Positions 16,015-64,000 of a stretch of 64,000 bases of DNA are shown piece by piece (the stretch's first letter is position 1; each line of letters opens with the position of its first letter). The DNA is from Gammaproteobacteria bacterium. GTDB lineage: Bacteria > Pseudomonadota > Gammaproteobacteria > Eutrophobiales > Eutrophobiaceae. The notes under the pieces are model-generated. The model worked only from the letters and a program-made list of their open reading frames with translations, was not told where the DNA came from and made no database searches. The DNA lies in the NCBI GenBank assembly GCA_965248145.1, contig OZ252091.1, positions 2,898,082 to 2,962,081 of the forward strand. The letters are read 5' to 3'. A program made the position numbers and the translations under genes.

Positions 16015-16036
16015 AAAACAATCTCAGCCGTTACTT

Positions 16037-19901: not shown

Positions 19902-19956
19902 ACTATTGCCTCCTCATTAGTTCAGGTTTTTTACTACTGTATTATGTATTGAAGAT

Positions 19957-20046: not shown

Positions 20047-20057
20047 GTTTTTTAATT

Positions 20058-23497: not shown

Positions 23498-23550
23498 CTG
23501 TTTGTCTCCCCTATGTTTAAAAAAGTACCAGGTAAGCCCTGGTGTGTACA

Positions 23551-27446: not shown

Positions 27447-27722
27447 TTGTTCAATGATGTCGACTGGAAGTCCCTGGACCAGGTGGGTCAGCCAACGCGT
27501 ATACGCTTGTCCTCTACCGTAGCCGGCGTCATGCACGATGGCTCGCCAAATCCCGCCGAAAGCGTGTCAGTGATTTATAACAGGGACGGCAAGCTCCACA
27601 AGGTCAGGGCGAAACACGTGGTCATGGCCTGCGGCCATTCCGAACTGACCGGCGCCCAACTCTGGACGACGGCCGCGGAGGAAGGAGCGCGGGCAGCCAG
27701 TCAAATCCTGGATATGAGTTGA
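27447..27722 (+). pseudogene. C-terminal fragment of a flavin amine-oxidase-like oxidoreductase (remnant)
   Basis: ...KHVVMACGHSELTGAQLWTTAAEEGARAASQIL resembles the C-terminal end of FAD amine oxidases. There is no N-terminal part upstream; the ORF starts right after the araC stop. Confidence 0.25.
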
Positions 27723-27756
27723 TCCCGTCATTCCGGCCTGCGCCTGAATGGCGGGA

Positions 27757-29064: not shown

Positions 29065-29289
29065 GTTTATTTCTCGACTTGATTGGACCTGATATAACGG
29101 CGTAGCACTTGGTTAATATGCGTCTGATATTTGCCTCCGTGTACCTTGAACCATTCCGGCCTATCAGCGTCCAAGCGTAACGAGACCTGTTTTTAATGAG
29201 GCGATTGTAGTTATATAATTATAATTACACAACAAAAATGTCAAAAATGTCAGTACCATCAGGGCTCCCGCATACTTTCGAATCGAGCG

Positions 29290-29391
29290 CCGTCATTCCT
29301 GCGAAAGCAGAGTAGTGGCACAGAGCCTGCCCCTGCATGTCGTAAGCAGGGGGATGTGCCGTTTACGGACCAAAGGACGGAAATCCAGTGG
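29290..29391. repeat. Composite repeat: a family-B hairpin unit interrupted by a ~65-bp insert that carries the family-C element
   Basis: ccgtcattcctgcgaaagcag, then agtagtggcacagagcctgcccctgcatgtcgtaagcaggggga..., then ggaaatccagtgg. The C core reappears at 49175. Confidence 0.6.
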
Positions 29392-29430
29392 ACAAACCTT
29401 CCTTATTAATAACGTCCATCTCTCGAATAT

Positions 29431-34484: not shown

Positions 34485-34486
34485 GG

Positions 34487-34590
34487 TTTTTGGTTTTCAG
34501 TTTTTAGTTTTTAGTTTTTGTCATTACAAATTTACCACTAACAACTGATAACTAAAAACTGACAACTTACAACAAAAAACTAAATAAATG
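34487..34590. repeat. Low-complexity intergenic tract upstream of the acyl-CoA dehydrogenase: (agttttt)x3 and an inverted (aaaaact)-rich counterpart
   Basis: ttttcagtttttagtttttagtttttgtca ... aactgataactaaaaactgacaacttacaacaaaaaactaaat. Confidence 0.6.
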
Positions 34591-42647: not shown

Positions 42648-42787
42648 AAGATTAATAACATTTAATTTTATATAAATATAATTTAAAGAAATTATATTTT
42701 AATAATAAATAAAATAAGAAACTTAATTTACCATTTAATCGATAAAATACAAAATATTAATTATATCAGGATAAACAATAAATTGTT

Positions 42788-42813
42788 CACTGGATTCCGC
42801 TATTCACCGGAAT
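42788..42813. repeat. degenerate family-B hairpin unit in the lrp-putA intergenic region
   Basis: cactggattccgctattcaccggaat has the 5' cactggattcc box but lacks the gacgg end. Confidence 0.4.
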
Positions 42814-42826
42814 ATCTGCCCTGGAA

Positions 42827-47291: not shown

Positions 47292-47306
47292 CAGTTTGGG
47301 AATTCC

Positions 47307-47394
47307 GGATATTTGGGGTCAGAGTAAAAATACACTTGGGTTGATAGGCGCTTCTGGTTTGTTATTGAGTATTTTTACTCTGACCCCAAATATT
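47307..47394. repeat. Family-A palindromic element, copy 3
   Basis: Identical 25-bp terminal inverted repeats (ggatatttggggtcagagtaaaaatac ... gtatttttactctgaccccaaatattc). Confidence 0.8.
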
Positions 47395-47439
47395 CTGAAG
47401 ACAGTTTACTTAACTCTTACGGATTTTAGAACGGAAAGG

Positions 47440-49090: not shown

Positions 49091-49306
49091 CCACAGAGGA
49101 CACAGAGATCACAGAGTTATCCAGTATAATATCTCCGACAGGTTTGGATGGGCTTTTCAAGACTATCATCCGCCAGAGCCTGCCCTTGCATGTCGTAAGC
49201 AGGGGGACAGCGGATGGTAAGCGTACAGGGATGTATTCACAGCGGGTCTTGAAAAGCTCATGCAAACCTGTCTCCATTGACTCTGTGCTCTCTGTGCTCT
49301 CTGTGG
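49091..49306. repeat. Nested palindromic structure. Outer inverted repeat (cacagaggacacagagatcacagag / ctctgtgctctctgtgctctctgtg), inner 25-bp inverted repeat (caggtttggatgggcttttcaagac / gtcttgaaaagctcatgcaaacctg), and a central family-C core
   Basis: Seen directly. The central gagcctgcccttgcatgtcgtaagcaggggga matches 29321-29353 with one mismatch. Confidence 0.75.
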
Positions 49307-49343: not shown

Positions 49344-50261
49344 TTATACACCGGCGCCATTGAAGCGGGAATAAAAACCTCTGCCAGGTTCGCTCAGGCC
49401 GCCTTCAATGGTTTCCATATTTTCCACCAGGTAGTCTACGGAACCTTTCTGCACTGCGCGGTATATATTTTTTGTGAGATTGTATGCCGCAACGCCCGAC
49501 CAGTTCGGCGGCAGCAGTTCTTCGGGGAGATCGGAATCCTGTAAGAGTATACGACGATACTCGTGAATGAGCAGGGTACGAACCTGAAAACATTGTCCTG
49601 TATCCATTTTTCTTGCCCTGCTGATGGCGCGATAAGCCGCGCGAAAACGCTGAATAAAGTGATTATACTTTTTTTCTATCCCGGCAAGGTTCCAGCAACT
49701 ATATGATAATTTCCTCAATACTTCACGGGAGGCAACGTCTTCGGTATTGGCAATCAGCACGACCACCTTGTCGGTCAGCTTAAACTCCACCAGGGTCTCA
49801 TCCAACGATTGCCGATCAGCGGAGGGATGCGCCAGCATACCCGGAGTTAACGCGCCGTAACCAAGCCACGATAATTCCTTGTACAACAACTCTTTTTCTT
49901 CACCATTGCATGAAGTCGGCAACACCAGGATCCATTTCCCATCCCAGAGCCGTTGATGGGCGGAATAAATCCGGCGCGCGGCCTTCTCATAATGCCTTTG
50001 TCCCGACTCGGTAAAGCTGTAATAACTGCGTCTGCCGACCTGCCTGGCAAGCAGCCAGTCTTCTTTTACCAGCCTGAAGACCGCGGTGCGAATCTGTCTT
50101 TGATTTAAACTGAACGGCGCCAGTACCTTGATCAGACTACCCAGCCAAACGGCGCTGCCATGCTGTGACACCGCATCGCCGAACACACTGACGATCAGCG
50201 ACCCGGTACGAACGGGCTTCCGACCGGCAAATTCCGCCACCAGCTTATTGATCTGCTTCAT
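49344..50261 (-). CDS. paaX: PaaX-family transcriptional repressor
   Basis: 305 aa. The N-terminus SLIVSVFGDAV...GSLIKVLAPFSLNQRQIRTAVFRLVKEDWL is PaaX-like. Confidence 0.75.
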   Translation of the reverse strand: MKQINKLVAEFAGRKPVRTGSLIVSVFGDAVSQHGSAVWLGSLIKVLAPFSLNQRQIRTAVFRLVKEDWLLARQVGRRSYYSFTESGQRHYEKAARRIYSAHQRLWDGKWILVLPTSCNGEEKELLYKELSWLGYGALTPGMLAHPSADRQSLDETLVEFKLTDKVVVLIANTEDVASREVLRKLSYSCWNLAGIEKKYNHFIQRFRAAYRAISRARKMDTGQCFQVRTLLIHEYRRILLQDSDLPEELLPPNWSGVAAYNLTKNIYRAVQKGSVDYLVENMETIEGGLSEPGRGFYSRFNGAGV

Positions 50262-50351
50262 ACCCGCTATTAATACCTAAGTAGTCCCAGGGCAAACGCA
50301 TACTTTTGGATCCACGCCCTTGTTCCCTGGATTACACCATTCCAGGACGCC

Positions 50352-50447
50352 CCGTCATTCTGGCGAATGCCAGAATCCAGTTCAAAAAAACATCCTTGAT
50401 AATAAGGAAAGTTGTCTACTGGATTCCAGCTTTCGCTGGAATGACGG
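50352..50447. repeat. Inverted pair of family-B 32-nt hairpin units separated by 35 nt
   Basis: ccgtcattctggcgaatgccagaatccagt ... ctactggattccagctttcgctggaatgacgg. The stems differ by compensatory changes. Confidence 0.8.
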
Positions 50448-50504
50448 ATTTAATATGTACACTAATTCGGAACAGTTATTCAGTTACAAGTAACAAGGAA
50501 AAAA

Positions 50505-51587
50505 TCACAGGTCGAAATCAACAATGACCCGGGTCGTAACCGGGTGGGCCTGGCAGGTGAGTATATAACCCGCGGCCAGTTCGTCCGCTTCCAGGGCGTG
50601 GTTGATATCCATATCCACTTCCCCTTCCAACAATTTTGCCTTACAGGTTGCGCAGACGCCGCCTTTACAGGCAAACGGCAGGTCAACGCCGTTATCCAGG
50701 GCGCCATCGAGGATGTTTTGGCCGTCTGCAGTCAATTCAAACAGGGTCTGTCGGCCATCGGCATTGATGCTGACCTGCGCCACCATCCCGGCCATCTTCA
50801 TGGCCCGCTCATGGTGTTTTGCCACTCTTGCCGCGGCCGCCTCGGCCGAGGCGGCGAATAGTTCATAATGGATCTTGTTTTCATCAATACCCTGGGCGCG
50901 TAATCCCCGGGATACTTCGGATATCATCGCCTCGGGTCCACACAGGAAAAACTCGTCAACGGAGTGCAGGTCAAGCAGGCGCTGAATTAATTCACCACCT
51001 TTTTTGTTATTGATACGGCCATTCAGGATGTCAATGTCCTGGTGTTCCCGGCTCAGAATATTGATCCACTGGAAGCGGGACATGTACTGATTTTTTACCG
51101 CCTCCAGTTCTTCTTTGAACATGATTGTAGCCACGCGCTGATTGCCATACAGCAAGGTAACCCGACTTGCCGGCTCCCGTTTCAATATGGTCTTGATAAT
51201 TGAGATGATCGGCGTTATGCCGCTACCGGCCGCGATGCACAAATAATTGCGTTCGCTATCCTCGCGCAACGGCGTGAAAAAAGTCCCCTGCGGCGACATG
51301 ACGTCTATCAGATCGCCCTTGCCCAGTTCTTGATTGGCAAACGTTGAGAAAACGCCGCCCGCTATTTTCTTTACGGCAACCCGCAGGGTTCCGTCATCGA
51401 CACCGGAACAAATGGAGTAAGAACGTCTTACCTCATCCCTGTCAATCTCCGCCTTCAACGTCAGGTACTGGCCTTGAGTGAATTGAAAAGTCTCGGCCAG
51501 ACGTTCGGGTACGTCAAACGTCAGACAAACCGCGTTATCCGTTTCATTCCTGATATTACTGAGGGTTAAAGGATGAAATTCCGGCAT
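50505..51587 (-). CDS. paaE: 1,2-phenylacetyl-CoA epoxidase reductase subunit (FNR-like plus 2Fe-2S)
   Basis: 360 aa. RSYSICS FAD motif and the C-terminal CxxxxCxxC...C ferredoxin. Confidence 0.85.
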   Translation of the reverse strand: MPEFHPLTLSNIRNETDNAVCLTFDVPERLAETFQFTQGQYLTLKAEIDRDEVRRSYSICSGVDDGTLRVAVKKIAGGVFSTFANQELGKGDLIDVMSPQGTFFTPLREDSERNYLCIAAGSGITPIISIIKTILKREPASRVTLLYGNQRVATIMFKEELEAVKNQYMSRFQWINILSREHQDIDILNGRINNKKGGELIQRLLDLHSVDEFFLCGPEAMISEVSRGLRAQGIDENKIHYELFAASAEAAAARVAKHHERAMKMAGMVAQVSINADGRQTLFELTADGQNILDGALDNGVDLPFACKGGVCATCKAKLLEGEVDMDINHALEADELAAGYILTCQAHPVTTRVIVDFDL

Positions 51588-52118
51588 TTAAATACATTTG
51601 AAATAGTCGAAGGGTTCCAGGCAATCGTTACATTTATATAAAGCCTTGCACGGGGTTGAACCGAAGCGGCTGATTTCCTCCGTATTTGCGGATTGACAGC
51701 GCGGGCAGTTCAGACCTGTGGCCGGTACGCGCAAACTCTGCTTGGCGGCCGAACCCGCGGGGGGAACAATGCCGTATTGCAACAGTTTCTTCCTGCCTGA
51801 TTCGCTTAACCAATCCGTCGTCCATGCAGGTGAAAGTTGCGTTTTCACTTCGACGTCCGCATAGCCGTTTTCTGTTAAAACGGCCGCTATATCGCTCTCT
51901 ATGGTCTGCATGGCGGGGCAACCACTGTAGGTGGGCGTAATCACGACCTGTAGTCCGCCTTCCTTCCACCGCACGTCCTGTAATATGCCCAAATCAGCAA
52001 TGGTTAAAACGGGGATTTCCGGATCAACAACCTGTTCCAGAACATGTCTTGCCTCTTTTATGATGTCTTCGGCGTTATCATCAGACATGGATGAGGCTAT
52101 TTCCCGGGTAGCGCTCAT
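51588..52118 (-). CDS. paaD: phenylacetyl-CoA epoxidase subunit PaaD
   Basis: VVDPEIPVLTIADLGIL...TPTYSGCPAM is the PaaD/SufT-like pattern. Confidence 0.8.
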   Translation of the reverse strand: MSATREIASSMSDDNAEDIIKEARHVLEQVVDPEIPVLTIADLGILQDVRWKEGGLQVVITPTYSGCPAMQTIESDIAAVLTENGYADVEVKTQLSPAWTTDWLSESGRKKLLQYGIVPPAGSAAKQSLRVPATGLNCPRCQSANTEEISRFGSTPCKALYKCNDCLEPFDYFKCI

Positions 52119-52122
52119 GTCA

Positions 52123-52920
52123 CTACCATTCCAAGCCGGGATAGGCCCTTTGTACGGACTGCATTTCAGCCAACAGGTAACCCATGTGTTCTGAATGCAG
52201 ACCTTGCCGCCCCCCGCTACGAGTAAACTTGGCTTCCGGCCGTTCCAGCGTGGCTTTGTTAAGAACGCTGTTTACTTTTTCATTCCACTGGGCTTCGATG
52301 ATTTTCAGGTCCACGCCGATTTGTTTGGCCTGCATGGTTTGATCGATTTCATCCGCGTCGAACAACTCGAAGGTAAACGGCATCAATTGGGTCACGGCCC
52401 TGCTTATTTTTATATGGCTCTCGCCGGTTCCATCGCCCAGGCGAACTATCCATTCGCCGCTATGGCGCAGGTGATATTCACATTCTTTCAGGGTTTTCGC
52501 CGCAATAGCAGCCAGGGTGGAATCAACGGAGTATTGCAATGCCTGGTAATAGAAATAATCATACGCGTCAACAAAGAACTGCCGGGCCGTGGTAAAGGCA
52601 AAATCACCCACCGGTAATTCCATGATATGAAAATTCCGAAATTCCCGTTCATTGCGAAAATAAGCGAGATCGTCCTCTGTTCTTCCTGCGCCTTCCACCT
52701 CGCCGGCGTATGTCAGTAACATGCGGGCGCGTCCGACCAGGTCCAGCGCGGTATTGGTCATGGCTATATCTTCTTCCACAAAGGGTCCGTGACCACACCA
52801 CTCCGCCAGGCGCTGGCCATTAACCAGGGCATTATCCCCAAGCCTGATGACGTACTGGAATAAGTCCTGTTGCACAGATACGGGGTCAGGTCGCACATTG
52901 CACACGCTGAGGTTTGTCAC
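52123..52920 (-). CDS. paaC: phenylacetyl-CoA epoxidase subunit PaaC
   Basis: YVIRLGDNALVNGQRLAEWCGHGP matches the PaaC N-terminus. Confidence 0.85.
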   Translation of the reverse strand: MTNLSVCNVRPDPVSVQQDLFQYVIRLGDNALVNGQRLAEWCGHGPFVEEDIAMTNTALDLVGRARMLLTYAGEVEGAGRTEDDLAYFRNEREFRNFHIMELPVGDFAFTTARQFFVDAYDYFYYQALQYSVDSTLAAIAAKTLKECEYHLRHSGEWIVRLGDGTGESHIKISRAVTQLMPFTFELFDADEIDQTMQAKQIGVDLKIIEAQWNEKVNSVLNKATLERPEAKFTRSGGRQGLHSEHMGYLLAEMQSVQRAYPGLEW

Positions 52921-52972
52921 AGCTTCACACTCATTTCTTTACGTGTGCAATGTGCGACCTGACCCTGTATGT

Positions 52973-53266
52973 TCATAACTTGAGGTTGTCGGGCACGTCG
53001 TAAAAGGTAGGGTGGCGATAGATCATCTTATCTGTCGCCGGTTCAAAAAAACTGTCTTCGTCCCCGGGCTGACTGGCGATGATATCGGCGGATTTCACCA
53101 CCCAGATGCTGCATCCCTCATTCCGGCGGGTATAGGTATCGCGGGCATATTGCAGGGCCTGCTCACCATCGGCTGCATGAATGCTGCCTGCGTGTTTGTG
53201 ATCCAGTCCCCTCTTGCTACGGATGAAAACCTCCCAGAGAGGCAAACGCCCGGCTTTATCCGACAT
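52973..53266 (-). CDS. paaB: phenylacetyl-CoA epoxidase subunit PaaB
   Basis: LWEVFIRSKRGLDHKHAGSIHAADGEQALQYARDTYTRR. Confidence 0.85.
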   Translation of the reverse strand: MSDKAGRLPLWEVFIRSKRGLDHKHAGSIHAADGEQALQYARDTYTRRNEGCSIWVVKSADIIASQPGDEDSFFEPATDKMIYRHPTFYDVPDNLKL

Positions 53267-53278
53267 GATCTTTTCTCC

Positions 53279-54229
53279 TCAGGCAGCGACTTTATTGGCC
53301 CGTTGCCGTTGTTTGGCCGCGTAGGCCAGGGTGGCTTCCCGCACCCAGGCGCCGTCTTCATGAGCCTGGATACGGGCGCTCAACCGTTCATGGTTACAGG
53401 GGCCGTTGCCGGCAATCACCTGGTAAAATTCGTCCCAGTTTATTTCACCGAAATCGTAATGTCCCCGCGCTTCATTCCACTTCAGGTCAGGGTCGGGGAA
53501 AGTCAGGCCCAGGTATTCGGCCTGGGGAACGGATTGGTCCACGAATTTCTGCCGTAATTCATCATTGCTGTTGCGCTTGATTTTCCATTGCATGGACTGG
53601 GCGGAATGCCGGGAATCCGCGTCACTGGGACCGAACATCATCAATGACGGCCACCACCACCTGTTCACCGCATCCTGCGCCATCGCCTTTTGCTCTGCGG
53701 TCCCTCGGCAAAGGGTCATCAGCAATTCAAAACCCTGGCGGATATGAAAACTCTCTTCCTTGCAAATCCGCACCATAGCCCGGCTGTATGGGCCATAAGA
53801 GCAACGACACAAGGGAATCTGGTTGATGATGGCGGCCGAATCCACCAGCCAGCCAATGGCCCCTATGTCCGCCCAGGTCAGGGTCGGATAATTAAAAATA
53901 CTCGAATATTTGGCCTTGCCGGAATGCAGTTGTTCTATCAACTGTTCCCTGGAGATACCCAGGGTTTCCGCCGCGCAGTATAAATACAAGCCATGTCCCG
54001 CCTCATCCTGTACCTTGGCCAGCAGGATCGCCTTGCGTCTCAGCGTCGGCGCCCGCGTGATCCAGTTCCCCTCCGGCAACTGGCCAACTATCTCGGAATG
54101 GGCATGTTGTGAGATCTGCCTGATCAGGGTTTGCCGGTAGGCGTCCGGCATCCAGTCCCGAGGCTCGATTTTCTCCTCGACGTCTATCCGCCCCTGAAAG
54201 GCCTGTATCAACGTGGCTGTGCTGTTCAT
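53279..54229 (-). CDS. paaA: phenylacetyl-CoA epoxidase catalytic subunit PaaA
   Basis: [60 protein letters not shown]. Confidence 0.9.
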
Positions 54230-54379
54230 CTGTTTATCGCGTGTATGTTACCGATTAGTTAATGATACAAAATTTATCAACAATGTCAAATTTTTTGTAT
54301 CATACTCTTGATATGGAAAAGCCACAGTTTCCCTTACAAGATGCATCATGTCATTGCATCAAATAAAATCATATATCGT

Positions 54380-55538
54380 TTAATGCTGTAAAAGATTAAA
54401 GAAATCTTCATGAGGGATATGAGAGATTCTCATACGATAACCTAGGCTTCTTTTACATTGGGTCATCCAACCAGCCCATGATCTAGATTCTTTCCATACA
54501 TTAGAATAGTCCTCATGTTTATATGGCGAGGGGACCTTGACTCGCGCCAGCGCTAAACCTAAATCCACCTGATTCGTACAGAGACAGAGCGCACCATGCA
54601 AACTATGATATACGTACCCAAGCGCAGATGAGATTTCCACCCAAACTACATAGCCATCACGCTTCCATTCAGTAATATTTAGCAAATCTGATTTTTAAAT
54701 TGTTCCTTGCCAGATTCGACCCCCGCCAAGGCCATAGCAACAAAGGGTGAAATAATTTCTACGGCCTTATCCACTACTTGGGCTAGCTCGTCGTCCGGCA
54801 GTTTTCCATCTGGTTCAGCTTGTTTCCACTGTACAGCCAATCCTTCATAGAGGTAGCAGATATTATCGTATTGGAGGAGGTAAGGCAGAGAACCCTCAAT
54901 TTTCCCAGTGTGGTATCAGATCAAACCAAGGCTTTTTAACTAAGTTGCCAAATCAAACGGTAAATCGCTAATGTCTCGTAAGCGTTTGCCAGACACCAAG
55001 GTATTCAGTGTATCCAACGAATCGGAGTCTGAAGCATTATCTTTGGTAGCTTCCATCAACTCGCGTAACACGAAATGCTAGACACAATCTATATCACCGA
55101 TAGCATAAGCCAGCGAAGCGATTCGTCCAGGTAAAGGTTCACCGATGACGACGACAATGTGCGGTGTTTTGCCCTTGCGATTGCGTATCAAATTCAATCC
55201 TTCTGTACGTGCGTTTTGCGAGCGATCGCTACGAATCGTCCATTTGCAAGAAATGAAAATTCCCATTCTCCTGGACGCAAATGGAGCAACAACTCGAACG
55301 CATTTTGTAAAAAATCCACGGTCGCCATCTCGAACTGGCTCCCTACTGTTTGTCCGGGCAACTTACCTTCGTTTACATCAATTCCGATGCTGTCCACGAT
55401 ACCCTTACTAATCTTAACACTTGTCGAGTTCCCACTATCGGCATTGTTTGGTATGCCAGTTCCGCTTTTGCGCAATACTTTCTCGCAAATCCGGTTATGA
55501 CAGGCGCGCCGCAGTTCTTCGATCTTTCCTTGACTCAT
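54380..55538 (-). pseudogene. decayed gene downstream of the methyltransferase, most likely the cognate restriction endonuclease, broken into at least 4 frame-shifted fragments
   Basis: Fragments 55194..55538 (MSQGKIEELRRACHNRICEKVLRKSGTGIPNN...), 55078..55266, about 54700..55080 (…KLPDDELAQVVDKAVEIISPFVAMALAGVESGKEQ) and 54380..54685, all on the minus strand in different frames. Low-GC DNA. Confidence 0.4.
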
Positions 55539-56883
55539 GGCTTTATCAATCCAATTACATATTCTTCGTGCATCCGCTTCTCAATTTGTGAACGTTGCTC
55601 TTTGCCCCAGCGCGCAGGCATCATACGCCTATCACGATCCAGACGATGAACACCGATCCCCGCCAAATTAAAACCGATATTTTCGCCAATAGCCGCAAGC
55701 CCTTTCTGTGTTTCCACGTCAATACCACTCAAATTCGAAGTGCCAACGACAATTACAGCCGCTCTACCTTTCTTCAAAACCCGCCGCATTTCGCTTATTA
55801 CGGCGGACATCTCACCAAAATACCGGCGTAAAGCTCCCGCTTTTTTAGAATCAAGCTCGGCCAATCTGGTAAGCGTTTTTTCACATTGTTGCGGCAAACG
55901 ATCAAATTGAGCTCCATTGGTAGCATCATGTCCCAGGTATCGTGCGCGAATCCTTGTGAGGTCCTCGATTTTCCAACCGAACCAAACGAGTAAAAATTTA
56001 TGTGCCCGCATATAATCAATCGCATTGTTCGCATACGGAGGCGAAGTCACGATCAAATCAACGCTTGAAGACGGGATACCAGTTTTATCCGCGTTTGCTA
56101 TTCGAATCTCAACGTTTTGTTTTGCTATAAATCCCCGGTGGAGCAACCCCGTTGCATCCTTAGTATAAGAAGCCAGATTATGTTTTAACCGCTTGACAAA
56201 TTCGACGAATGTCGAGTTCGGGTTTTTATCAATCACCTTATGCGGGCGAGTATGGGCTAAATCACGTGCCAGGGAGACCCCCCCGACTTAGCGATGATTG
56301 ACGCTGAAAAAATCATCTTGAAAAATTTCTGCATCTCATCCTGCTGTAACGCTTCGATACCCTTCAAAAGTGCGAGCAACTCCAATTGTTGCTGTGGCAA
56401 AAACCAGTAATCGACAAATGCTCGTGTCTTTGTATCAAAACGTCGATTCAGTTCCTGTTCTAATTGATCTCGGTCATGATGAAAATTGCGCTGTGCCGAG
56501 TCGATAATTCTGTATCCAGTCTCCAGTGTTTTTGTCGGGTTAATGGCAATCAACTTTGCCTCCGCGATCATCCGTGCCAAAGGGTCAATGTCACAACCGA
56601 TTGCACGCCGCCCTAAACGTGTGGCTTCCACCAGCGTCGTACCTGAACCGAACATAGGATCAAAAACAACCTCATTTTTATCCGAAAGATTTTCAATAAA
56701 GAACTGTGGCAGTTGTGGTGGGAACTTGGCTGGAAAAGGATGCCAGCCATGGGTCAAGTGCTTGCCGTTTGTGCCATGAAAATCCAAATCAGCACACAAT
56801 GCTTCCTGCAGCAAATTGAGGCATTGCCCGTTATTTGGGAAGAGTAATTTATACGAGTCCATTACGATTAAACCTATATCCAA
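55535..56883 (-). pseudogene. DNA (N6-adenine/N4-cytosine) methyltransferase split into two ORFs by a frameshift exactly at a C7 (coding-strand G7) homopolymer
   Basis: ORF 56257..56883 carries motif I (DPMFGSGTT). ORF 55535..56236 carries motif IV (TSPPY). The frames overlap at ccccccc (56278-56284). Inserting one G on the coding strand fuses them: ...AKSGGVSLARDLAHTRPHKVIDKNPN... Confidence 0.6.
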
Positions 56884-57015
56884 CCCGGTTTACTACTTCC
56901 GGGGTAAGCTTCAGAAACAAGTGACGTAAATTCAGATAATAAGTGCAACACCCGAAGAAGTCAGTCAGCTGGTATATTTCACAGTTTGACTGAAACCAAC
57001 TCAAGGGTGATTGCC

Positions 57016-57257
57016 ATGAGCAAGAGATACACACAGCTGACTGAGGCTGAACGATACCATATTTACACGATGAAGAAACAGGGTTATTCGAACACGGCGA
57101 TTGGCCAAGGGATGGGGCGGAGAACGTGGGGATTATCCGGTGCTTCTGCCTGAACCTGGCGCGTTTGCATCCGCACAAGAACAGTATGCGGGGAAAACTC
57201 AAGCAGGCTGGGTGGAGTGATGCGAGGCGGGCTGAAATCCTGTTTGGACAGGCTGCT
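57016..57257 (+). mobile_element. IS scars: IS30-like transposase N-terminal HTH fragment (57016-57150) abutting an ISAs1-like transposase C-terminal tail (about 57150-57257)
   Basis: MSKRYTQLTEAERYHIYTMKKQGYSNTAIGQGMGRR matches the IS30 HTH start. ...CLNLARLHPHKNSMRGKLKQAGWSDARRAEILFGQAA* resembles the ISAs1-family C-terminus (ALNLLK...KRLKAAWDD.YL..VL). Confidence 0.4.
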
Positions 57258-57264
57258 TAAAAGT

Positions 57265-57960
57265 ATGCGGTTGCCCTGCACAACGGATGACATCATTGAA
57301 TATATTCGGGATTACATTAAGAGCAATGAGCCGGGGTCGTTTCCCGATGGAAAAGCAGATTTTCTCATCCACGATAATTACGGCGTTAAGGGTCTGGCGG
57401 CTATGTTTGCGAACACGAATATAGTCCAGGATGAGAATCGTGCCGGGCTCACATGCCATGATGATAAAGGTAATATATTTACTTTGCCTCACTATGTGAG
57501 CACACGTCCGGAAGAAGTCAGTTTTCACCCTGTACGACATACTGACAAGCCGGACCTGGATCTGGAACGAGAGCTGGACGGCGTGACAAAAATCATCCAT
57601 GCGGTTGGCCTTGAACGCGCACCTTTACCAGGAATTCACTATAAGGGGCGGTGCTGGATAGACGAAGAGGTGAGCTACGATCGATCTTCATGTCGCATTA
57701 CATACTGTCAGAATAACAAATCGGATACTGATGAGAGGAAAGCGCGTCACTTTCCTGGTCTTTACGGGGCTGGCCACGCTTTTCCGGAAGAGAGGGTATT
57801 CCGTCACGTGCCCGATGAAATTGGTTTGAGATGGGACCAGGTAATTGCGGATGAGCATGTGAGTAATTTGCTACAGGAGAAAGAGACAACCGAAGGAGTC
57901 TCAGATTTTGCACTGACGGCCAAGGAAAAATTAGTCCCGGCAATCTTGCAGATTAGGTAA
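57265..57960 (+). CDS. hypothetical protein (231 aa from MRLPCTTDD; the ORF is open from 57217)
   Basis: Long ORF between the IS scars and the high-GC island; no recognisable domain. Confidence 0.35.
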   Translation: MRLPCTTDDIIEYIRDYIKSNEPGSFPDGKADFLIHDNYGVKGLAAMFANTNIVQDENRAGLTCHDDKGNIFTLPHYVSTRPEEVSFHPVRHTDKPDLDLERELDGVTKIIHAVGLERAPLPGIHYKGRCWIDEEVSYDRSSCRITYCQNNKSDTDERKARHFPGLYGAGHAFPEERVFRHVPDEIGLRWDQVIADEHVSNLLQEKETTEGVSDFALTAKEKLVPAILQIR

Positions 57961-58127
57961 TATTGATCGAATAACGAAATTCAGGCGAGATTAGAATTAG
58001 ACTTCCCCTGGTTTGCATGACACCCTCATTCTCACAAACGATCGTTTTTGAGAAGGCCTGTCAGGATCTGTCAAAGACGTATTGACCGTTCGGGGACGGA
58101 GTTCACATCCATCCTTGTTTTACCATT

Positions 58128-58150
58128 ACCCTGCTCTACCACGGCAGGGT
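58128..58150 (-). terminator. hairpin overlapping the autotransporter stop codon (accctgc-N9-gcagggt)
   Basis: 7-bp stem with a 9-nt loop. No strong U-tract follows. Confidence 0.25.
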
Positions 58151-61100
58151 TGTGCGCAGCATCACTCCATGCTCCGGTTTGCCATGGCCGCTCTCACGGC
58201 GTTCCCCGTCCAGGTTCAGGCTCAGGGACTGCCCCAGGTTGAAGCGCCAGCCCAACCGCAGGGAGCGGCTGCTGCCGGCCCACTCCATACCGCTGTACGG
58301 CGTCAGGATGCCGTAGGTCCACGGCACGTCCAGCCCATAGCCCATCTCGGCCTTGATGCGCCCCTGTGCCGCCGGATTGTGGTGTGGTGAGATGCCCGCA
58401 GTCGTCTGCCGCTGCCACAAGGCCTCGGCGCCGCTGTCGGTAATGCCCCAGCCCGAATCCAGCCGCAGGGCCAGACCCCGGGCCAGACGCCCCGGGTCCA
58501 GGGCCAGGCTACCGCTAACGCCCCATTCCTCATAGCCGCCGTCCTCGTGGGCCACCAGGGCGCGTGCCCGGGTCTCTACGGTCAAGCCCCGCACCGGGTC
58601 CGCATAGCGCAGCCCGCCGCCCAACTCCATGCCGAAGCCTCTCTCGGCCTCGCCATCGTCATAGCGTATCCCCAGCTCAAAGCCGGGCGCAAGCAGGGCA
58701 TTATTGGCCAGCGCCCGCTGGTGCCGCCCGCTCAGCAGTAACCGCACCCGGCTGTTATCGGCGCTTTCCACCGCCTGCATGCCCGGCACCTCATCCGAGG
58801 CCGTGCGCACCCACAAGGCATCCGTCTTCAGGGCCAGTTCCGTGCGGGCGCTCGCATATACCACCCCGCGCAGGCCCAATGCCCCCATACCCATCCGCAT
58901 GTCCGTCTCTATTGGGGTCGGACTTAAGTCCGACCCCGTTTGCCGTAGTTGCAACGTGCCTGCCCCATATCCCAGCGTGCCCCACACCGATAACCTGTCC
59001 GTCAGCGCATAGCGCAGGTATGGGTTGACGCTCACCAGTGCGCTGTTCAACCTGCCGGCGCCATCGTTGCGGGCAGACCGGTAGGTCCCGTCCCCGTCGT
59101 GGTAGGCCAGCGCCACACCGGCCAGCCAGCGGTTGCGAGCGTAGTCCACACCCAACAGGCCCGACAGGACGTCACCGCTGATGTCCACGCTCTCATCCGT
59201 GCCGCTGAAGTGGGTCAATGCTCCCCGGCCCCACAGGGACCAGTGGCCGGGGGTTTCCGAGGTGGCTGTGATGGTTTCTAAGGTGTTGTCGGCGCGACCG
59301 TGTGTTTCACTGGATTCCTGCCTACGCAGGAATGACGAGTCTGACAGGGACAGGTTGAAACTGCTCCGGGAGATGGACTGCCGCTTGTCGAATTGCAAGC
59401 TGCCGCGGTTGGTCAGCAGAGTCCACAGAGCGCGTTCCAGCAGGGTCGCCTCGCCGGCTTGGGCTTCGACCTGTCCGGGGACGGAATTCAAGTCCGTCCC
59501 CTGTTCCGTGCCGATCTGCCCGGGATTTAACATGGATGGACAGGATGATTCAGGCTGGGGTTGTCCGAATGATCCTGCCTGGTCGTCATGACGAGGGATG
59601 TGATCAGACGTGTCGCTTGCGGTGATGGTCTGTTCACTGAATTCCTGCCTGCGCGGGAATGACGAACGGAGTTGAACTGCCCGCCCACCCAAGGTCAACC
59701 GGCTGTCAGCCCTCGCCGCTTCGTCGAAGCGGGCATTCAGCAGGGTCACTACCTGCACGGCGCTGGTGCGCCCGAACCGTGCCAGCCAGCCATTAGGCAA
59801 TGGATCGGTGTTCCGAATCGTCCCCGTTGCCGTGCCGTCGCCGATTTTCGCACCACTGGCATTGGACAGGGTCAGGGTCAGGGTCGCGCTGTCATCGTCA
59901 ATGTCATCATCCAGCACCGTCACATTGATGGTCGCCTGGATGTCCCCCGCCGGTATCCGCAACGTGCCGGACGCGGCGGTGTAGTCCTGCCCCGCCGTCG
60001 CCGTGCCGTCCGAGGTTGCGTATCGCACCGTGGTCGCCCAGGCGCGCTGGTTGCTCTGGGTTACCGTGAACCCAAGCGTCGCGCCCACTGCTTCCCTCAC
60101 CTCCGCGTCGGCGACCGAAAGAGACGGACCGGTGATAATGGTCTGCAGCCCCCCGGGCAGCATACGTCCGTCCGCATCGCACACGCCGGGCGAGCCGGCG
60201 CAGTCAGTGGTCGCGCGCACCCGTACAGTAACGTCGCTCGCTCCGTTCGGAGCAATTGTCACAATCCATTTCCTGTTTTTGCCGGGTTCCCGGCGCTTGG
60301 CGCCATCGACACGCCCGTTGGTGACCTCAAACAGCACATTACGCCCCCCGACCGTGGTGTAGCTGAGGCCGGGCACGTCGTGGCTGAGGTGAAAGTAGAT
60401 CTCGAACGGCGTGCTGCCGTCATGTTTAGCGGCTTCAAGCGCTGAATCGGCATCCGCGGCTGGCGCCTGTGAGAAGGAGGCTGTGAACGGCCTCCCCGAC
60501 ACCGTTTTCGAGACCGCAGATGCAAGCGCCCGGTTATCGACGCAGATAGCATTGGCCTCGCCGCAGGACCGCACGGGCAGGCTGATTGTAATATTGCCAT
60601 TCTGGGTGGGGGTTATTCGGACTTCCCATCTCTGATTGCTGCCCGGGGTAAGACGCCGGGCGCCGTCCACCCGGGCCCCGGTCACATTCAGCAGTCCGCC
60701 ACCCACCGTCCGGTAACTCAACACCGCGACGTTCTCGCTGAAGCGCAACCCCACCGTGAACGCTGTCGACCCGTCGTGGGAGGCCGGCACGTTCTCGAAC
60801 TCAACGGTCAGGGCATCACCCGCAACCACGGTCACCGACACCGTGTCTTCATGGTAGAGCCCGGCCCCGTCCGTCACCCGCAGGCTGAACGTGAGTATCT
60901 CGTCCGTACTCAGCCCCGTCGGCGCATCGAAGGTCGCGCCGGCTGTGTCGTCATTGGCAAGCGTCACATTCGTACCACTCGTCTGGGTCCACGCATAACT
61001 CAACTGGTCGCCTGCATCCGGGTCGGTGCCCGTCCCGGCCAGGGTCACCGTGGTACCTCCGCTAATGTCCGCCCGGTCGTTCCCCGCATTCGCCGTGGGC

Positions 61101-62485
61101 GCCTCATTGCGGTTCGACAGCGTGACGGTCAGATTTGCCGTGTCACTGCGGCCGCCGTCGCTCACCTGTACCGCGACCTGGTAGCTGCCGTCGTTGTCGG
61201 CGTCGTCCGGGTCCTCAAAGTCCTTGGCCGCGGCGAGCGCCAATACGCCAGCGGCGCTGATCGTGAACTTCCCACCGTCCGTCCCGGCAGCGGCGCCTGA
61301 GGGAACCGACCAGGTCAGATCCGCTGCCTGAGTATCCGAATCCGTGGCTGTCAGGGTCGCCACCGCCGTCTCGCCCTCCAGCACCATGAAGCTTGACGAA
61401 CTCGTAATCTCCGGGGATTCCGGCGTGCCGCCAGGACCCGGCACCGTCACGCTAGCGGCGGCCGACAGCTTCTTGCCGCCAGACGTGCACACCGCGCCCG
61501 TCGCGGCGCAGTCGCTTGGCGCCGGGATCACAATGGAAATCTCCCCGCCAGAATTCGGACGCAACGTGTATTCCCAACGCTGGTTGCCTGGCGGCTCTAA
61601 ACGCTGCAATCTCACCACCGTGCCGCCTGTCACCTGCAGTGCATAGTCCTTCATGGCCCGAAAACGAAGATTAACTTCTTGGTTGAAAAGAAGTGCAAAC
61701 TTGAACGAACTCTGCCCGTCATGGGCCGCGGGGAGGTCTTGGAAGTGAGCCGTCAACACGTTATTCTCAGTTTGGGGCAGGTTGGGAGTGTTGGAGTCCT
61801 CCGTCCCAATTGCAAAACCCCTGACAGACATCTTCAATGCCTGTCTACCTGTGTGCCACACGTTCAATTCTTCCGGTTTAATGCAATAAATGTCACGCCT
61901 GGGCGAGCATGGCTGCTCCAGATTGTTCGTTACCCATTTCTCCAGACGCGAATCTCCGATGCTGAATCCGGTTAGGGAACCGGCATCCTCACGGTCAGCG
62001 TCAGTTTTCGCTGTTTTGAAGTAGTGGTATTCACCGTCATCATTGATCAGCACCAGAAAATAAGTTGTGTTCGCGTCCAGGTTGGCACCGGGAGTGGCGT
62101 AGAACTTGGCAACACCGGTATTTGCGACGCTCCCAATAAGGCGGTATAACTCTCGTCCGGGCTCACCTGAGTTGTCCGTATAGATGCCCACGGCCAACGC
62201 CGCTCTCGAATCTGGGGAGAGGACGTTTACCGCGACGGCACTAAGCCTATACCCGCCCGTATTAGAGCCGGTGGTGAAAGTTTGAGCCTGGACGTAATTG
62301 ACAGTATTCCGTGATGTGAACCTCCCGACAGTAGCACCTGCCGCTCTGGCAGTCTCCTGCGCCATGTTGGAGACGAGTGTGACGGTCGACGCCTGAGCTG
62401 GCGCGGCAAACGCCAGTACGAGCAAGCTCGCGGTCAAGGCGAGCAGCAACGGCACGGCCCGTCTGCGGCGGCTCAACCGGTGCAT
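58136..62485 (-). CDS. large autotransporter (type Va) adhesin-like protein: signal peptide, passenger with Ig-like and Calx-beta domains, C-terminal beta-barrel translocator
   Basis: Start at MHRLSRRRRAVPLLLALTASLLVLAFAAPAQA (ORF open from 62596). Calx-beta: ...VRYATSDGTATAGQDYTAASGTLRIPAGDIQATINVTVLDDDIDDDSATLTLTLS. Autotransporter barrel: ...WSLWGRGALTHFSG...LSVWGTLGYGAG... ending ...MLRTTLPW. High-GC DNA. Confidence 0.8.
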   Translation of the reverse strand: MHRLSRRRRAVPLLLALTASLLVLAFAAPAQASTVTLVSNMAQETARAAGATVGRFTSRNTVNYVQAQTFTTGSNTGGYRLSAVAVNVLSPDSRAALAVGIYTDNSGEPGRELYRLIGSVANTGVAKFYATPGANLDANTTYFLVLINDDGEYHYFKTAKTDADREDAGSLTGFSIGDSRLEKWVTNNLEQPCSPRRDIYCIKPEELNVWHTGRQALKMSVRGFAIGTEDSNTPNLPQTENNVLTAHFQDLPAAHDGQSSFKFALLFNQEVNLRFRAMKDYALQVTGGTVVRLQRLEPPGNQRWEYTLRPNSGGEISIVIPAPSDCAATGAVCTSGGKKLSAAASVTVPGPGGTPESPEITSSSSFMVLEGETAVATLTATDSDTQAADLTWSVPSGAAAGTDGGKFTISAAGVLALAAAKDFEDPDDADNDGSYQVAVQVSDGGRSDTANLTVTLSNRNEAPTANAGNDRADISGGTTVTLAGTGTDPDAGDQLSYAWTQTSGTNVTLANDDTAGATFDAPTGLSTDEILTFSLRVTDGAGLYHEDTVSVTVVAGDALTVEFENVPASHDGSTAFTVGLRFSENVAVLSYRTVGGGLLNVTGARVDGARRLTPGSNQRWEVRITPTQNGNITISLPVRSCGEANAICVDNRALASAVSKTVSGRPFTASFSQAPAADADSALEAAKHDGSTPFEIYFHLSHDVPGLSYTTVGGRNVLFEVTNGRVDGAKRREPGKNRKWIVTIAPNGASDVTVRVRATTDCAGSPGVCDADGRMLPGGLQTIITGPSLSVADAEVREAVGATLGFTVTQSNQRAWATTVRYATSDGTATAGQDYTAASGTLRIPAGDIQATINVTVLDDDIDDDSATLTLTLSNASGAKIGDGTATGTIRNTDPLPNGWLARFGRTSAVQVVTLLNARFDEAARADSRLTLGGRAVQLRSSFPRRQEFSEQTITASDTSDHIPRHDDQAGSFGQPQPESSCPSMLNPGQIGTEQGTDLNSVPGQVEAQAGEATLLERALWTLLTNRGSLQFDKRQSISRSSFNLSLSDSSFLRRQESSETHGRADNTLETITATSETPGHWSLWGRGALTHFSGTDESVDISGDVLSGLLGVDYARNRWLAGVALAYHDGDGTYRSARNDGAGRLNSALVSVNPYLRYALTDRLSVWGTLGYGAGTLQLRQTGSDLSPTPIETDMRMGMGALGLRGVVYASARTELALKTDALWVRTASDEVPGMQAVESADNSRVRLLLSGRHQRALANNALLAPGFELGIRYDDGEAERGFGMELGGGLRYADPVRGLTVETRARALVAHEDGGYEEWGVSGSLALDPGRLARGLALRLDSGWGITDSGAEALWQRQTTAGISPHHNPAAQGRIKAEMGYGLDVPWTYGILTPYSGMEWAGSSRSLRLGWRFNLGQSLSLNLDGERRESGHGKPEHGVMLRTTLPW
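59308..59338 (-). repeat. family-B hairpin unit inside the autotransporter CDS, in frame (encodes SSFLRRQESSE)
   Basis: cactggattcctgcctacgcaggaatgacgag. Its reverse complement tcgtcattcctgcgtaggcaggaatccagtg matches the intergenic units. Confidence 0.75.
59633..59662 (-). repeat. second in-frame family-B hairpin unit inside the autotransporter CDS (encodes SSFPRRQEFSE)
   Basis: cactgaattcctgcctgcgcgggaatgacg. The reverse complement cgtcattcccgcgcaggcaggaattcagtg shares 18 nt exactly with the intergenic copy at 19406-19423. Confidence 0.75.
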
Positions 62486-62892
62486 GGCGCACCCCGCCGG
62501 CGGTGTGGTCCGCTCATGGCCGTTGTCAGGGTCCCCTTGCATTGGCCGACCGTGGGAACGCCGACCTTGGTCCATGAAGGAATGGAGTTGACGCACATTT
62601 CATAAACGTCTGCGCCCAGATCTTCGGCAGCGGCGAATGCCGCCTCCACGTATTCACGACGGGTGGCAAGATCGCTCAGCAACATCACGGTCTCACCCTG
62701 GTGCACATTGCAGAGTTCGAACTGTTTTTTAAACAAAATCCCCAGCTTCGCGGGATTCAATTCTTGTACGCGGGCAATTGCAGGCAACACGAGATACTCT
62801 CCCCTATCGTTTTGATCATATATAAAATATCGTTTTATATATAATATCATGCACGTCTCAAAGACGATTGTCAATTTGGATGTCAGGAACAA
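62473..62892 (-). CDS. hypothetical ORF, possibly the 5' part of a gene truncated by the high-GC island insertion
   Basis: The middle segment looks genuinely coding (…KLGILFKKQFELCNVHQGETVMLLSDLATRREYVEAAFAAAEDLGADVYEM…). The C-terminal about 40 codons lie in the high-GC island DNA and overlap the autotransporter start. Confidence 0.25.
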   Translation of the reverse strand: MFLTSKLTIVFETCMILYIKRYFIYDQNDRGEYLVLPAIARVQELNPAKLGILFKKQFELCNVHQGETVMLLSDLATRREYVEAAFAAAEDLGADVYEMCVNSIPSWTKVGVPTVGQCKGTLTTAMSGPHRRRGAPCTG

Positions 62893-63000
62893 ATAGATGG
62901 TATGGGTTGTAACATGTCCTATATGGGTATTGATGAATCATGACCACAACCATCTTTAAGCAGCATTGCCGATGCGCTGTTTTCCACCACCAGACAAAAG

Positions 63001-63165
63001 GTGCTGGCCTATCTTTTCGGCCATCCAGACCGCAGCTTTTATGCCACCGAGATTATTGCGCTCGCAGACAGCGGTTCTGGCGCCGTGCAGCGTGAATTGT
63101 TCCGGCTTACACAGAGCGGCCTGGTAACAGTGAGGCGTATCGGAAATCAGGAATTCTGTATCGAA
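63001..63165 (+). CDS. small winged-helix-like DNA-binding ORF (GTG start; no upstream ATG) that reads through into the repeat array
   Basis: ...ALFSTTRQKVLAYLFGHPDRSFYATEIIALADSGSGAVQRELFRLTQSGLVTVRRIGNQ looks like a wHTH. The ORF continues through the repeats, which is probably spurious. Confidence 0.3.
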
Positions 63166-63400
63166 TTCTGGCGACGAATTCTGGGGACACAATACTTCGA
63201 ATTCGGGGACGAATTCTGGGGACACAAGGTGGAATCACGAATTCTGGGGAGAATTCTGGGGACACAATACTTAATTCGGAATTCTGGGGACACAACGGAA
63301 TTCTGGGGACACAATACTTAATTCAAGGAAGTTCCCCAGGGTGGAATTAAGTATTGTGTCCCCAGAACTTCCCAGAACTTCAGAACTTTACACCCAGAAC
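63151..63400. repeat. Iteron-like array: at least 7 direct copies of gaattctggggacacaa(tactt) with irregular 0-15-nt spacing, plus one inverted copy
   Basis: Copies start at 63151 (degenerate), 63164, 63176, 63211, 63239, 63251, 63278 and 63298. The inverted copy is aattaagtattgtgtccccagaa at about 63346-63368, followed by cccagaacttcccagaacttcagaacttt. Confidence 0.8.
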
Positions 63401-63464
63401 TTTATTTTACTGGATTATGCTACTATATGGCATATGCTGTCATATACCAATGTAGGAGGCGATC

Positions 63465-63704
63465 ATGTACACCGCAAAGATTTTCAAGAACGGCCGTAGC
63501 CAGGCTGTCCGCATCCCGAAGGACTATGCCTTCGAGGGCGTGACTGAGCTTACCGTACAGAAAGTGGGACAAAAACTGATCCTGGAGCCCGCGCGTAAGT
63601 CCTGGCTGACGTTGAACGAGGAAAGCAAGCCTGTCGGCGATAACTTCCTGGCCGAACGTCCGGACATGTTCGAGATTGATGAAAGCCGGGTGATAATTGA
63701 ATGA
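63465..63704 (+). CDS. vapB: VapB (AbrB/MazE-fold) antitoxin
   Basis: MYTAKIFKNGRSQAVRIPKDYAFEG. It overlaps vapC with an ATGA junction. Confidence 0.75.
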   Translation: MYTAKIFKNGRSQAVRIPKDYAFEGVTELTVQKVGQKLILEPARKSWLTLNEESKPVGDNFLAERPDMFEIDESRVIIE

Positions 63705-64000
63705 TATATATGCTCGACACAGACACCTGCAGCTATATCATACGGCAGCATTCGCATTCCGTCCTGGAAGCCCTACAGGATAGGGCAAGCAGAGGTCATA
63801 TCCTTTGTATGTCCGTAATCACCTACCAGGAGTTACGCTTTGGCGCTGAACGGGTCGGCTCTGCGAGTTACCACAATCGCATCGATAAGATATGCGAACG
63901 TCTTGATTATGTGGCGGACTGGACAACTGAGTGTGCGGATAAGTTTGCTGCTACGCAGACAGCACTGCTCGAAAAGGGCAAACCGATCGGTTTCACCGAT
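63701..64000 (+). CDS. vapC: VapC PIN-domain toxin, 3'-partial at the window end
   Basis: MIYMLDTDTCSYIIRQHSHSVLEAL...VITYQELRFGAER is a PIN/VapC N-terminus. The frame is open to 64000. Confidence 0.75.
   Translation, partial: MIYMLDTDTCSYIIRQHSHSVLEALQDRASRGHILCMSVITYQELRFGAERVGSASYHNRIDKICERLDYVADWTTECADKFAATQTALLEKGKPIGFTD

Follow-up and report, generated by a model that had tools for sequence, protein, structure and literature searches.

The 64,000-nucleotide stretch of contig OZ252091.1 analysed here (the window) carries about 12 copies of a short oriented DNA hairpin of the form CGTCATTCC-stem/loop-GGAATCCAGT, two of which lie inside an intact surface-protein gene and are read in frame. 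This host gene occupies 58136-62485 on the minus strand and is annotated in the ENA/NCBI record as one intact coding sequence (CDS) for a secreted protein of 1449 amino acids; at full length the open reading frame (ORF) spans 58136-62596, with the record CDS starting at 62485. The protein starts with a Sec-type signal peptide and continues with choice-of-anchor R, Big_9, PKD-like and Calx-beta domains; a variable linker (~200 amino acids) then leads to a C-terminal outer-membrane beta-barrel ending in ...LPW. An earlier note on this DNA had called it an autotransporter gene. The autotransporter beta-domain PF03797, a 12-stranded barrel with a linker helix in its pore, found no match in the host protein, for which Pfam gave only a weak OMP_b-brl match; PF03797 is on record for some of the homologs. 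A sequence search of the PDB retrieved Calx-beta domains only. An AlphaFold2 model of the C-terminal 556 residues, built on a 15-sequence alignment, was poor (mean pLDDT 44) and showed ~19 DSSP strand segments, with beta strands from residue ~196 onward and no structure predicted around either hairpin unit; the linker had the lowest confidence and lacked secondary structure, a weak argument since the whole model is poor. Foldseek with this same poor model returned generic outer-membrane barrels at query-normalised TM scores of 0.36 or less, the BrkA beta-domain ranking 23rd. We describe the gene as autotransporter-like, an autotransporter identity being plausible.

Both intragenic units sit in the linker in identical orientation and frame, 327 nt (109 amino acids) apart. 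Unit 1, TCGTCATTCCCGCGCAGGCAGGAATTCAGTGAA (59633-59667, minus strand), lies just past a conserved LTLGGR motif and is read as SSFPRRQEFSE (amino acids 978-988 of the long ORF; 59633-59665). One mismatch in the stem and a T replacing the C right after the palindrome mark it as slightly decayed, and its predicted fold of -3.5 kcal/mol (z -0.8) is no better than that of shuffled sequences. Unit 2, TCGTCATTCCTGCGTAGGCAGGAATCCAGTGAA (59306-59340, minus strand), follows directly upon a conserved SSFxLSLS motif, ~20 amino acids ahead of the first barrel strand, and is read as SSFLRRQESSE (amino acids 1087-1097; 59306-59338); compared with most homologs it is an additional segment. Its 8-bp stem is perfect and its DNA hairpin reaches -7.7 kcal/mol (z -4.4). 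Unit 2 has the top covariance-model score in the window (49.6 bits, against 46 bits for unit 1), although the model was trained on 17 units of which nine came from the window itself, so that the scores of those nine are partly circular. These results bear out the earlier observation of two in-frame peptide repeats in the linker. A 33-nt unit with a CCAGTGAA tail can be read without a stop in two forward frames out of three and, in reverse, in one or two.

The remaining copies are intergenic. Combining repeat finding, a hairpin scan and the covariance model gave an inventory of nine full units, one variant, one truncated half and one interrupted unit, with intergenic copies outnumbering intragenic ones by about 5 : 1. 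The pattern ATTCC-N10-GGAAT occurs five times in the window where 0.13 is expected, a count reached in 0/100 shuffles, and a longer pattern allowing up to three mismatches gave 22 matches against 7.1 expected. A repeat family with many intergenic copies, as first noticed from the letters of the sequence, is thus confirmed. ORFs make up ~90% of the window, yet only two of the ~12 units fall in coding sequence, as would be expected were intragenic insertions mostly lost. Units are found in either orientation relative to the neighbouring genes, and no further unit was found in the 8.5 kb past the window end.

Three loci hold convergent inverted pairs with spacers of ~30-40 nt (16035-16144, 50350-50449 and 19304-19401), in agreement with the earlier note that intergenic copies are often inverted pairs. 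At 16035-16144 the arms 16035-16069(+) and 16110-16144(-) flank a 40-nt spacer and are of the ATACT...AGTAT type; 29 nt of each arm are 100% complementary to the other. The pair at 50350-50449, with arms 50350-50384(+) and 50415-50449(-) around a 30-nt spacer, lies between paaX and a paa reductase gene. The third pair belongs to a cluster at 19304-19423, which in minus-strand order consists of a half-unit (19423-19404), a full unit (19401-19367), a small GTCGCCTTCGGCGAC hairpin and an inverted variant, CGCCACCCCGGGCTTGACCCGGGGTCCAGT, at 19304-19339(+) that the covariance model detects at E=0.009. The truncated 5' half at 19404-19423 has the exact 18-mer CGTCATTCCCGCGCAGGC in common with intragenic unit 1, just as had been reported for the 19406-19423 region. 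Single units complete the set. One near-symmetric unit, CGTCATTCC...GGAATGGCG at 27722-27757, scores on each strand (29.7 and 26 bits) and separates the 3' ends of convergent genes. A lone unit with a degenerate 5' flank, AGATATTCC..., lies on the minus strand at 42786-42820 (38 bits) in the divergent region between an Lrp/AsnC regulator gene and putA. The repeat recorded earlier at 29290-29391 is present, but it is one plus-strand unit, CCGTCATTCCTGCGAAAGCAG ... GAAATCCAGTGGA at 29288-29393, split by an insert of ~68 nt that carries a second hairpin, CCCCTGCATGTCGTAAGCAGGGG, at 29330-29352; its 5' part (29288-29319) is detected by the covariance model at E=0.15.

Aligning nine window units with eight units from related loci revealed conserved flanks, CGTC on the 5' side and CCAG on the 3' side, around an 8-bp stem. 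Across these 17 units, 95.6% of stem cells are Watson-Crick or GU paired; in four of the eight stem pairs both partners have changed (16 cells), and the observed covariation score was reached in 0/500 shuffles, with the caveat that a stem was required in the scan that yielded some of the other-locus units. Sliding the 3' arm as a control lowered the pairing to 15-44%. Compensatory change thus maintains the hairpin, as the earlier note had claimed. Folded as single-stranded DNA (ssDNA), unit 2 and the intergenic units reach -7.5 to -7.8 kcal/mol with z-scores of about -4.4 to -4.9. The GNRA-like tetraloop proposed for the element did not survive inspection. The loops are GAAT, GAAA, GTAG, GCAG and CTGC, that is, G-N-A-N or CTGC, and an RNA reading of this kind is off target because the known biology of the motif is that of ssDNA.

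That known biology is the Neisseria Transformation Sequence (NTS), CGTCATTCCCGCGMAVGCGGGAATCYRG, an oriented sequence of 28 nt that includes the dRS3 repeat (Chenal et al., Nat Commun 2025;16:2388, PMC11893778). SsnA, a GIY-YIG nuclease of ~94-95 amino acids, binds the NTS hairpin as ssDNA only, on a single strand, and cleaves a few nucleotides upstream; RNA of the same sequence is neither bound nor cleaved. Mutagenesis of the NTS showed that the three nucleotides upstream are required for cutting and the C right after the palindrome for binding. In many phyla, ssnA homologs are bordered by NTS-like 'Ssn-related motifs' (SRM) in the arrangement NTS->ssnA<-NTS, and an SsnA homolog is encoded by 81% of the genomes that contain over 200 SRMs (PMC11893778). 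The window units read CGTCATTCC[N]GCG-NANG-C[N]GGAATCCAG and CGTCATACTGGCGAATGCCAGTATCCAG, and the pair at 16035-16144 resembles the published NTSvar, CGTCATACTCGGG-N5-CCCGAGTATC (PMC11893778). Where the published definition allows one mismatch to the 28-nt NTS, unit 1 has two, unit 2 has three, including a compensatory change from a C:G to a T:A pair, and the unit at 50415-50449 has two, both compensatory. Judged by their sequence, the window units appear clearly homologous to the NTS while mostly lying outside the strict one-mismatch Neisseria definition. The degenerate SRM pattern HGTCWY-N(0-2)-YYVSBRH-N(0-5)-WNVSBRG-N(0-2)-RNCYNB is matched exactly by four intergenic units (16038, 16114, 50353 and 50419; shuffle mean 0.4), which are both arms of the pairs at 16035/16144 and 50350/50449. 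Unit 2 misses this pattern by one loop position and unit 1 by two, namely the stem mismatch and the T after the palindrome. The SRM trait of a hairpin palindrome with oriented, non-palindromic flanks is present in the window units, with unit 1 lacking the C after the palindrome. The published mutagenesis leads one to predict that unit 2, with its intact CGTC, its perfect stem and its C following the palindrome, is still a good Ssn substrate, and that unit 1, which has lost this critical C and has a mismatched stem, binds poorly.

The likeness extends to further details. The window units and the NTS/SRM system have in common the CGTC 5' flank, the ATTCC...GGAAT palindrome, the 4-nt loop and the C followed by AG after the palindrome, as well as the ATACT variant, a high copy density and convergent pairs oriented as in NTS->ssnA<-NTS. 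They differ in that ssnA was not found in the ~93 kb read here, and in that the present units occur in frame in a surface-protein gene family, some of them with a nested second hairpin. The exact pattern CGTCATTCC-N10-GGAATCCAG was present in at least 120 viral-contig stretches. At five viral-contig loci a single-domain GIY-YIG gene of 90-97 amino acids (PF01541, E 1e-15 to 1e-17) stands beside a unit, and one of these (L054) has the complete NTS->gene<-NTS arrangement. The published association of NTS with a GIY-YIG gene is reproduced here from independent data.

This identity bears on two other accounts of the repeat. The earlier note had likened it to a REP/MITE-type mobile hairpin and proposed looking for a REP-associated tyrosine transposase (RAYT), which points to the repetitive extragenic palindromes (REP) and bacterial interspersed mosaic elements (BIME) that are mobilised by a RAYT of the Y1 type. 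The general resemblance is real: both are short, imperfect and mainly intergenic palindromes with clustered inverted pairs, and in both a domesticated nuclease or transposase acting on ssDNA hairpins has been proposed. The consensus is nevertheless a different one and matches NTS/SRM, whose associated gene encodes a GIY-YIG rather than an HUH Y1 enzyme, and the genes beside exact copies elsewhere are GIY-YIG genes. Precomputed Pfam annotation of the called genes shows no Y1_Tnp at 18-43447, at 49650-64000 or in the ~8.5 kb that follow the window, the interval 43.4-49.65 kb being covered by the ORF map only; in all, no RAYT gene was found in the ~93 kb read of this genome. We consider the REP/RAYT assignment highly improbable. 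According to the other account, the hairpins would act as RNA (as a terminator, attenuator or RNase site) and the intragenic copies would regulate the autotransporter mRNA. [quoted passage not shown] On the other hand, the hairpin is followed by CCAGTG/A and not by a T-run, Rfam at gathering thresholds gave no match in the window, units face both ways relative to adjacent genes, and SsnA does not act on RNA of this sequence. A role at the RNA level is therefore very unlikely.

We then turned to homologs of the host gene. A search with the C-terminal 556 amino acids yielded 204 relatives, nearly all metagenomic, and a genome scan gave 26 loci (L-numbers below) in metagenome-assembled genomes (MAGs) labelled Gammaproteobacteria, Binatia, Azotimanducaceae, Arenicellales, Nitrospira and Tectimicrobiota; the closest shows 63% identity, and the source genome was not among the representatives scanned. 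The linker varies in length among homologs. Two sites in it are recurrently occupied. Site 1, after LTLGG-x-x, holds SSFPRRQEFSE in the window and SSFPRTPESGE in L127 (ORF 7181-11605); a second ORF of L127 (3324-7139) has at this site a unit whose loop contains the second hairpin, L125 has a composite and L123 has decayed copies. Site 2, after SSFxLSLS, holds SSFLRRQESSE in the window and QAFLRKQESSE in L126 and in two tandem paralogs of L124, where a 27-nt insert between CGT and CAT precedes the peptide. One of these paralogs, ORF 11296-15267, is open over 1324 amino acids and called as a CDS of 1320 amino acids, intact with its unit. In L125, site 2 carries a 99-nt NTS->spacer<-NTS composite read as SSFPRGRESGGQGVAAGGAVSQRMPAPVRHDG; this locus has three such 99-nt composites in total, at both linker sites and in a barrel loop. 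In L127 and L125 the unit is also translated in further frames and orientations.

Other homologs are empty at these sites, namely L133 and L128-L131. The genes of L126 and L133 share 88.9% DNA identity across 1.1 kb; a 75-nt indel nevertheless separates them, and it falls exactly at the element. Such an indel in near-identical genes fits an element entering or leaving coding DNA without breaking the frame, and the hallmark of an in-frame MITE, an element in an intact gene with close homologs empty, is present here. The element itself is better conserved than its surroundings. Unit 1 (59633-59667) and its counterpart at 10140-10174 of L127 are identical at 31/35 positions, with flanks identical at 82/120 and 46/120; unit 2 (59306-59340) and its counterpart at 14069-14103 of L124 are identical at 30/35, with flanks at 87/120 and 78/120. 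The single comparisons thus give 86-89% for the cores and 38-72% for the adjacent, protein-conserved codons; pooled, the unit cores match at 61/70 and the flanks at 293/480 positions (Fisher P = 8e-6).

Could the repeat instead be a protein feature? SSF-x-RR-Q-E-x-SE might be a functional peptide motif of which the intergenic DNA copies are derived or chance-like versions, and the two window copies do share frame and orientation. The peptide is, however, missing from most of 120 homologs (carriers include P0011, P0061 and P0020), so that universal presence among orthologs, the outcome under which the earlier note would have taken the intergenic similarity for coincidence, is not what was found. 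The unit also occurs in the unrelated viral-contig stretches, in Neisseria and in many phyla, and in the window it is mostly intergenic. Moreover, other frames and orientations of it are translated in L127 and L125, and two of three forward frames would be open anyway. We find a protein-motif origin of the similarity hardly credible. The related suggestion that the linker repeat was the source of the element is refuted, the unit occurring far more widely than the gene and most homologs being without the peptide.

Additional observations concern the host-gene family. At 10001-10969 of L122, from the same genome (record 3,442,093-3,443,061), lies P0060, a chimeric paralog remnant in which the signal peptide and the first ~40 passenger amino acids are joined directly to the mid-barrel (VIETDMQMGMGALGLRG...). 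A 3877-amino-acid protein of the same contig clusters with P0060 at 90% identity, and the genome thus has at least three members of the family. In the first L124 paralog (9900-10050) and in L126 (9850-10050) the gene is called as two overlapping ORFs; these frame breaks lie at most ~150 nt from the NTS/hairpin composite, involve single-base differences in G runs, and may represent either pseudogenisation near the element or homopolymer assembly errors. Upstream of the autotransporter-like gene start, by ~600-900 nt, is an irregular array (63150-63367) of at least five direct copies of GAATTCTGGGGACACAATACTTAATTC at spacings of 19-47 nt, together with an inverted copy at 63344-63367.

Taken together, we favour the reading that the repeat is a local population of NTS/SRM units, that is, of dRS3-type oriented DNA hairpins, and that the in-gene units were inserted or recombined into the linker and are tolerated there; we put its probability at about three in four. 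It rests on four findings: sequence identity to the published motif, covariation of the hairpin, the position in frame, and homologs with occupied as well as empty sites. The in-gene units would have entered the gene through insertion, or else through recombination with further copies or paralogs. They would have persisted where the added length was a multiple of three and kept the frame, where the SSF-x-RR-x-ES-S frame held no stop codon, and where they fell into the non-conserved, variable-length linker segments that join passenger and barrel. Expression of the gene, if it occurs, would turn them into passive, presumably neutral peptides of 11 amino acids. The convergent NTS->spacer<-NTS pairs could be gene-less derivatives of an NTS-ssnA-NTS module, given that the window pairs and the L125 composites share the geometry of NTS->ssnA<-NTS; an Ssn nuclease may act in this genome. 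The occupied and empty sites and the 75-nt indel support an element that moves or recombines and survives in permissive protein segments. The earlier proposal of a mobile hairpin tolerated in frame is right in outline, while transposition itself we infer.

Several points weigh against this reading. Transposition of an NTS unit has never been demonstrated (PMC11893778, Discussion), and neither a target-site duplication nor a sharp insertion boundary could be defined for the units studied here. Searches for a GIY-YIG gene found none in the ~93 kb covered, which comprise the window and a further ~29 kb of its contig (L122 and the part of L153 outside the window) and amount to ~2.5% of the 3.77-Mb circular contig. 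The search combined Pfam on unit-adjacent ORFs, a six-frame regular expression, tblastn with the SsnA-like protein of L076 and precomputed Pfam annotation of called genes; the first three gave no match in the window or in the homolog loci. The higher conservation of the cores fits poorly with purely passive decay and hints at constraint at the DNA level, homogenisation from the genomic pool or a younger age. Finally, the same two sites are occupied in distant homologs, which means that the window copies may be old and inherited.

This last point leads to the most serious alternative, in which an ancestral NTS-spacer-NTS composite was inherited, partly deleted, and homogenised by recombination, either among paralogs or with units elsewhere in the genome. 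L127, L123, L124 (two paralogs), L126 and L125 have these two codon positions filled; GTCGCGCCGAC, downstream of unit 2, resembles the composite spacer hairpin; there are possible remnants at the 'empty' sites of L127 and L133; and these genomes hold several paralogs each, with six loci in OZ242169.1 and tandem copies in L124. Against such an origin, the units surpass the conserved codons around them in conservation, two genes with 89% identity differ in occupancy, and the composition of each lineage (single, nested or paired) demands several further events anyway. We regard an ancient, inherited origin as possible but the less probable course of events. A different and more speculative idea, which we consider rather unlikely, is that NTS/SRM units are actively maintained DNA signals which, in a surface-protein family with many paralogs in symbiont genomes, repeatedly come to occupy two or three fixed sites at the junction of passenger and translocator, where Ssn-type ssDNA cleavage or unit recombination would set the breakpoints for shuffling passenger domains onto a conserved barrel; the convergent NTS-spacer-NTS pairs would then be the non-autonomous mobile form of NTS-ssnA-NTS. 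It is prompted by three hints, namely that the cores exceed neighbouring codons in conservation, that the sites recur in distant homologs, and that nested and composite variants exist.

Under the favoured reading of a tolerated NTS/SRM population, several described systems offer points of comparison. The dRS3 repeats and the Neisseria intergenic mosaic elements (NIMEs) have a 20-bp core, ATTCCC-N8-GGGAAT, to which ATTCCC...AGGAAT in unit 1 is close, and likewise form mosaics of short spacers bounded by inverted units. dRS3 is a known target of phage recombinase (PMC11893778); here, one unit is interrupted by another small element. Unlike in Neisseria, the present units belong to a MAG of a different class (Gammaproteobacteria), most stems are ATTCC-N rather than ATTCCC, and the context of filamentous prophage or IS110-type integrase is not seen. 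Rickettsia palindromic elements (RPEs) and other in-frame MITEs (PMC10969869) are likewise palindromic repeats translated within a host protein as fold-compatible segments in several genes or sites. RPEs are, however, ~100-150 bp long, unrelated in sequence and spread over many housekeeping genes, whereas here the unit is 33 nt, the composite 99 nt, and the carrier one surface-protein family. As for terminal inverted repeats, the composites (L125 and the window pairs) have inverted NTS ends.

A second hairpin family, CCCC-NGC-AYNNNGTAA-GCN-GGGG, was found almost only touching NTS units, with NTS contact in 6/7 strict matches in 1.7 Mb of DNA examined. It occurs in the window at 29330-29352 and 49183-49206, in L127 at 5650-5670 and 7307-7327, in L141 at 9144-9164, in L124 at 9987-10009 and 14048-14070, and in L126 at 9987-10009. 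In L127 and L141 it occupies the NTS loop, in the window it lies within the interrupted unit 29288-29393, and in L124 and L126 it forms the 27-nt insert dividing CGT from CAT of the in-gene unit. This family may represent nested elements targeting NTS or, alternatively, a longer subtype of NTS. The copy at 49183-49206 is enclosed by a 27-nt inverted repeat (49137-49272; 93% complementary, arms 82 nt apart) located just 3' of the end of an AMP-binding (paaK-like) gene and upstream of paaX. An unrelated MITE-like family of ~100 bp has three copies in the window, all intergenic (19186-19285, 19955-20054 and 47303-47404), with terminal inverted repeats of 26-31 nt, GATATTTGGGGTCAGAGTAAAAATAC, around a 35-nt spacer; one copy adjoins the NTS cluster at 19.3 kb.

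Other features of the window are of separate interest. At 55194-56883, an N6/N4 DNA methylase is split into ORFs 55535-56236 and 56257-56883, and a short NgoMIV-like restriction-enzyme ORF (55194-55538) adjoins it; the whole resembles a restriction-modification system in decay. Two tandem TonB-dependent receptor paralogs of 782 and 824 amino acids (21203-26025) account for a 212-nt (D1) and a 100-nt (D5) direct repeat by ordinary gene duplication. A tRNA scan of the window found nothing. The intergenic DNA upstream of an acyl-CoA dehydrogenase gene contains, at 34486-34580, an imperfect T-rich inverted repeat, GTTTTTGGTTTTCAGTTTTTAGTTTTTAG... / ...CTAAAAACTGACAAC.

The repeat family and its enzyme partner are already known; what is added here is that NTS/SRM copies can also lie in frame in an intact gene for a secreted protein. 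The word 'intragenic' has no occurrence in PMC11893778, which does not mention translated copies, and the literature that we searched held no description of translated or intragenic NTS/dRS3 copies, which is absence of evidence only. SRMs are reported to be enriched in host-associated bacteria (PMC11893778). In our own assessment, the related MAG taxa are ones typically met in sponge microbiomes. Both an uncultured Gammaproteobacteria-like genome and co-occurring MAGs from several phyla carry the motif in abundance. For annotation, peptides of the SSFPRR-ES, VIPAQAGIQ and RHDG types are to be taken as translated repeats, not as domains. The in-frame copies bear on how surface proteins acquire linker length, and the occupied and empty sites in near-identical genes, together with the NTS-ssnA-NTS-like composites, make it possible to test concretely the still unproven notion of Ssn/NTS modules as present or past mobile elements.

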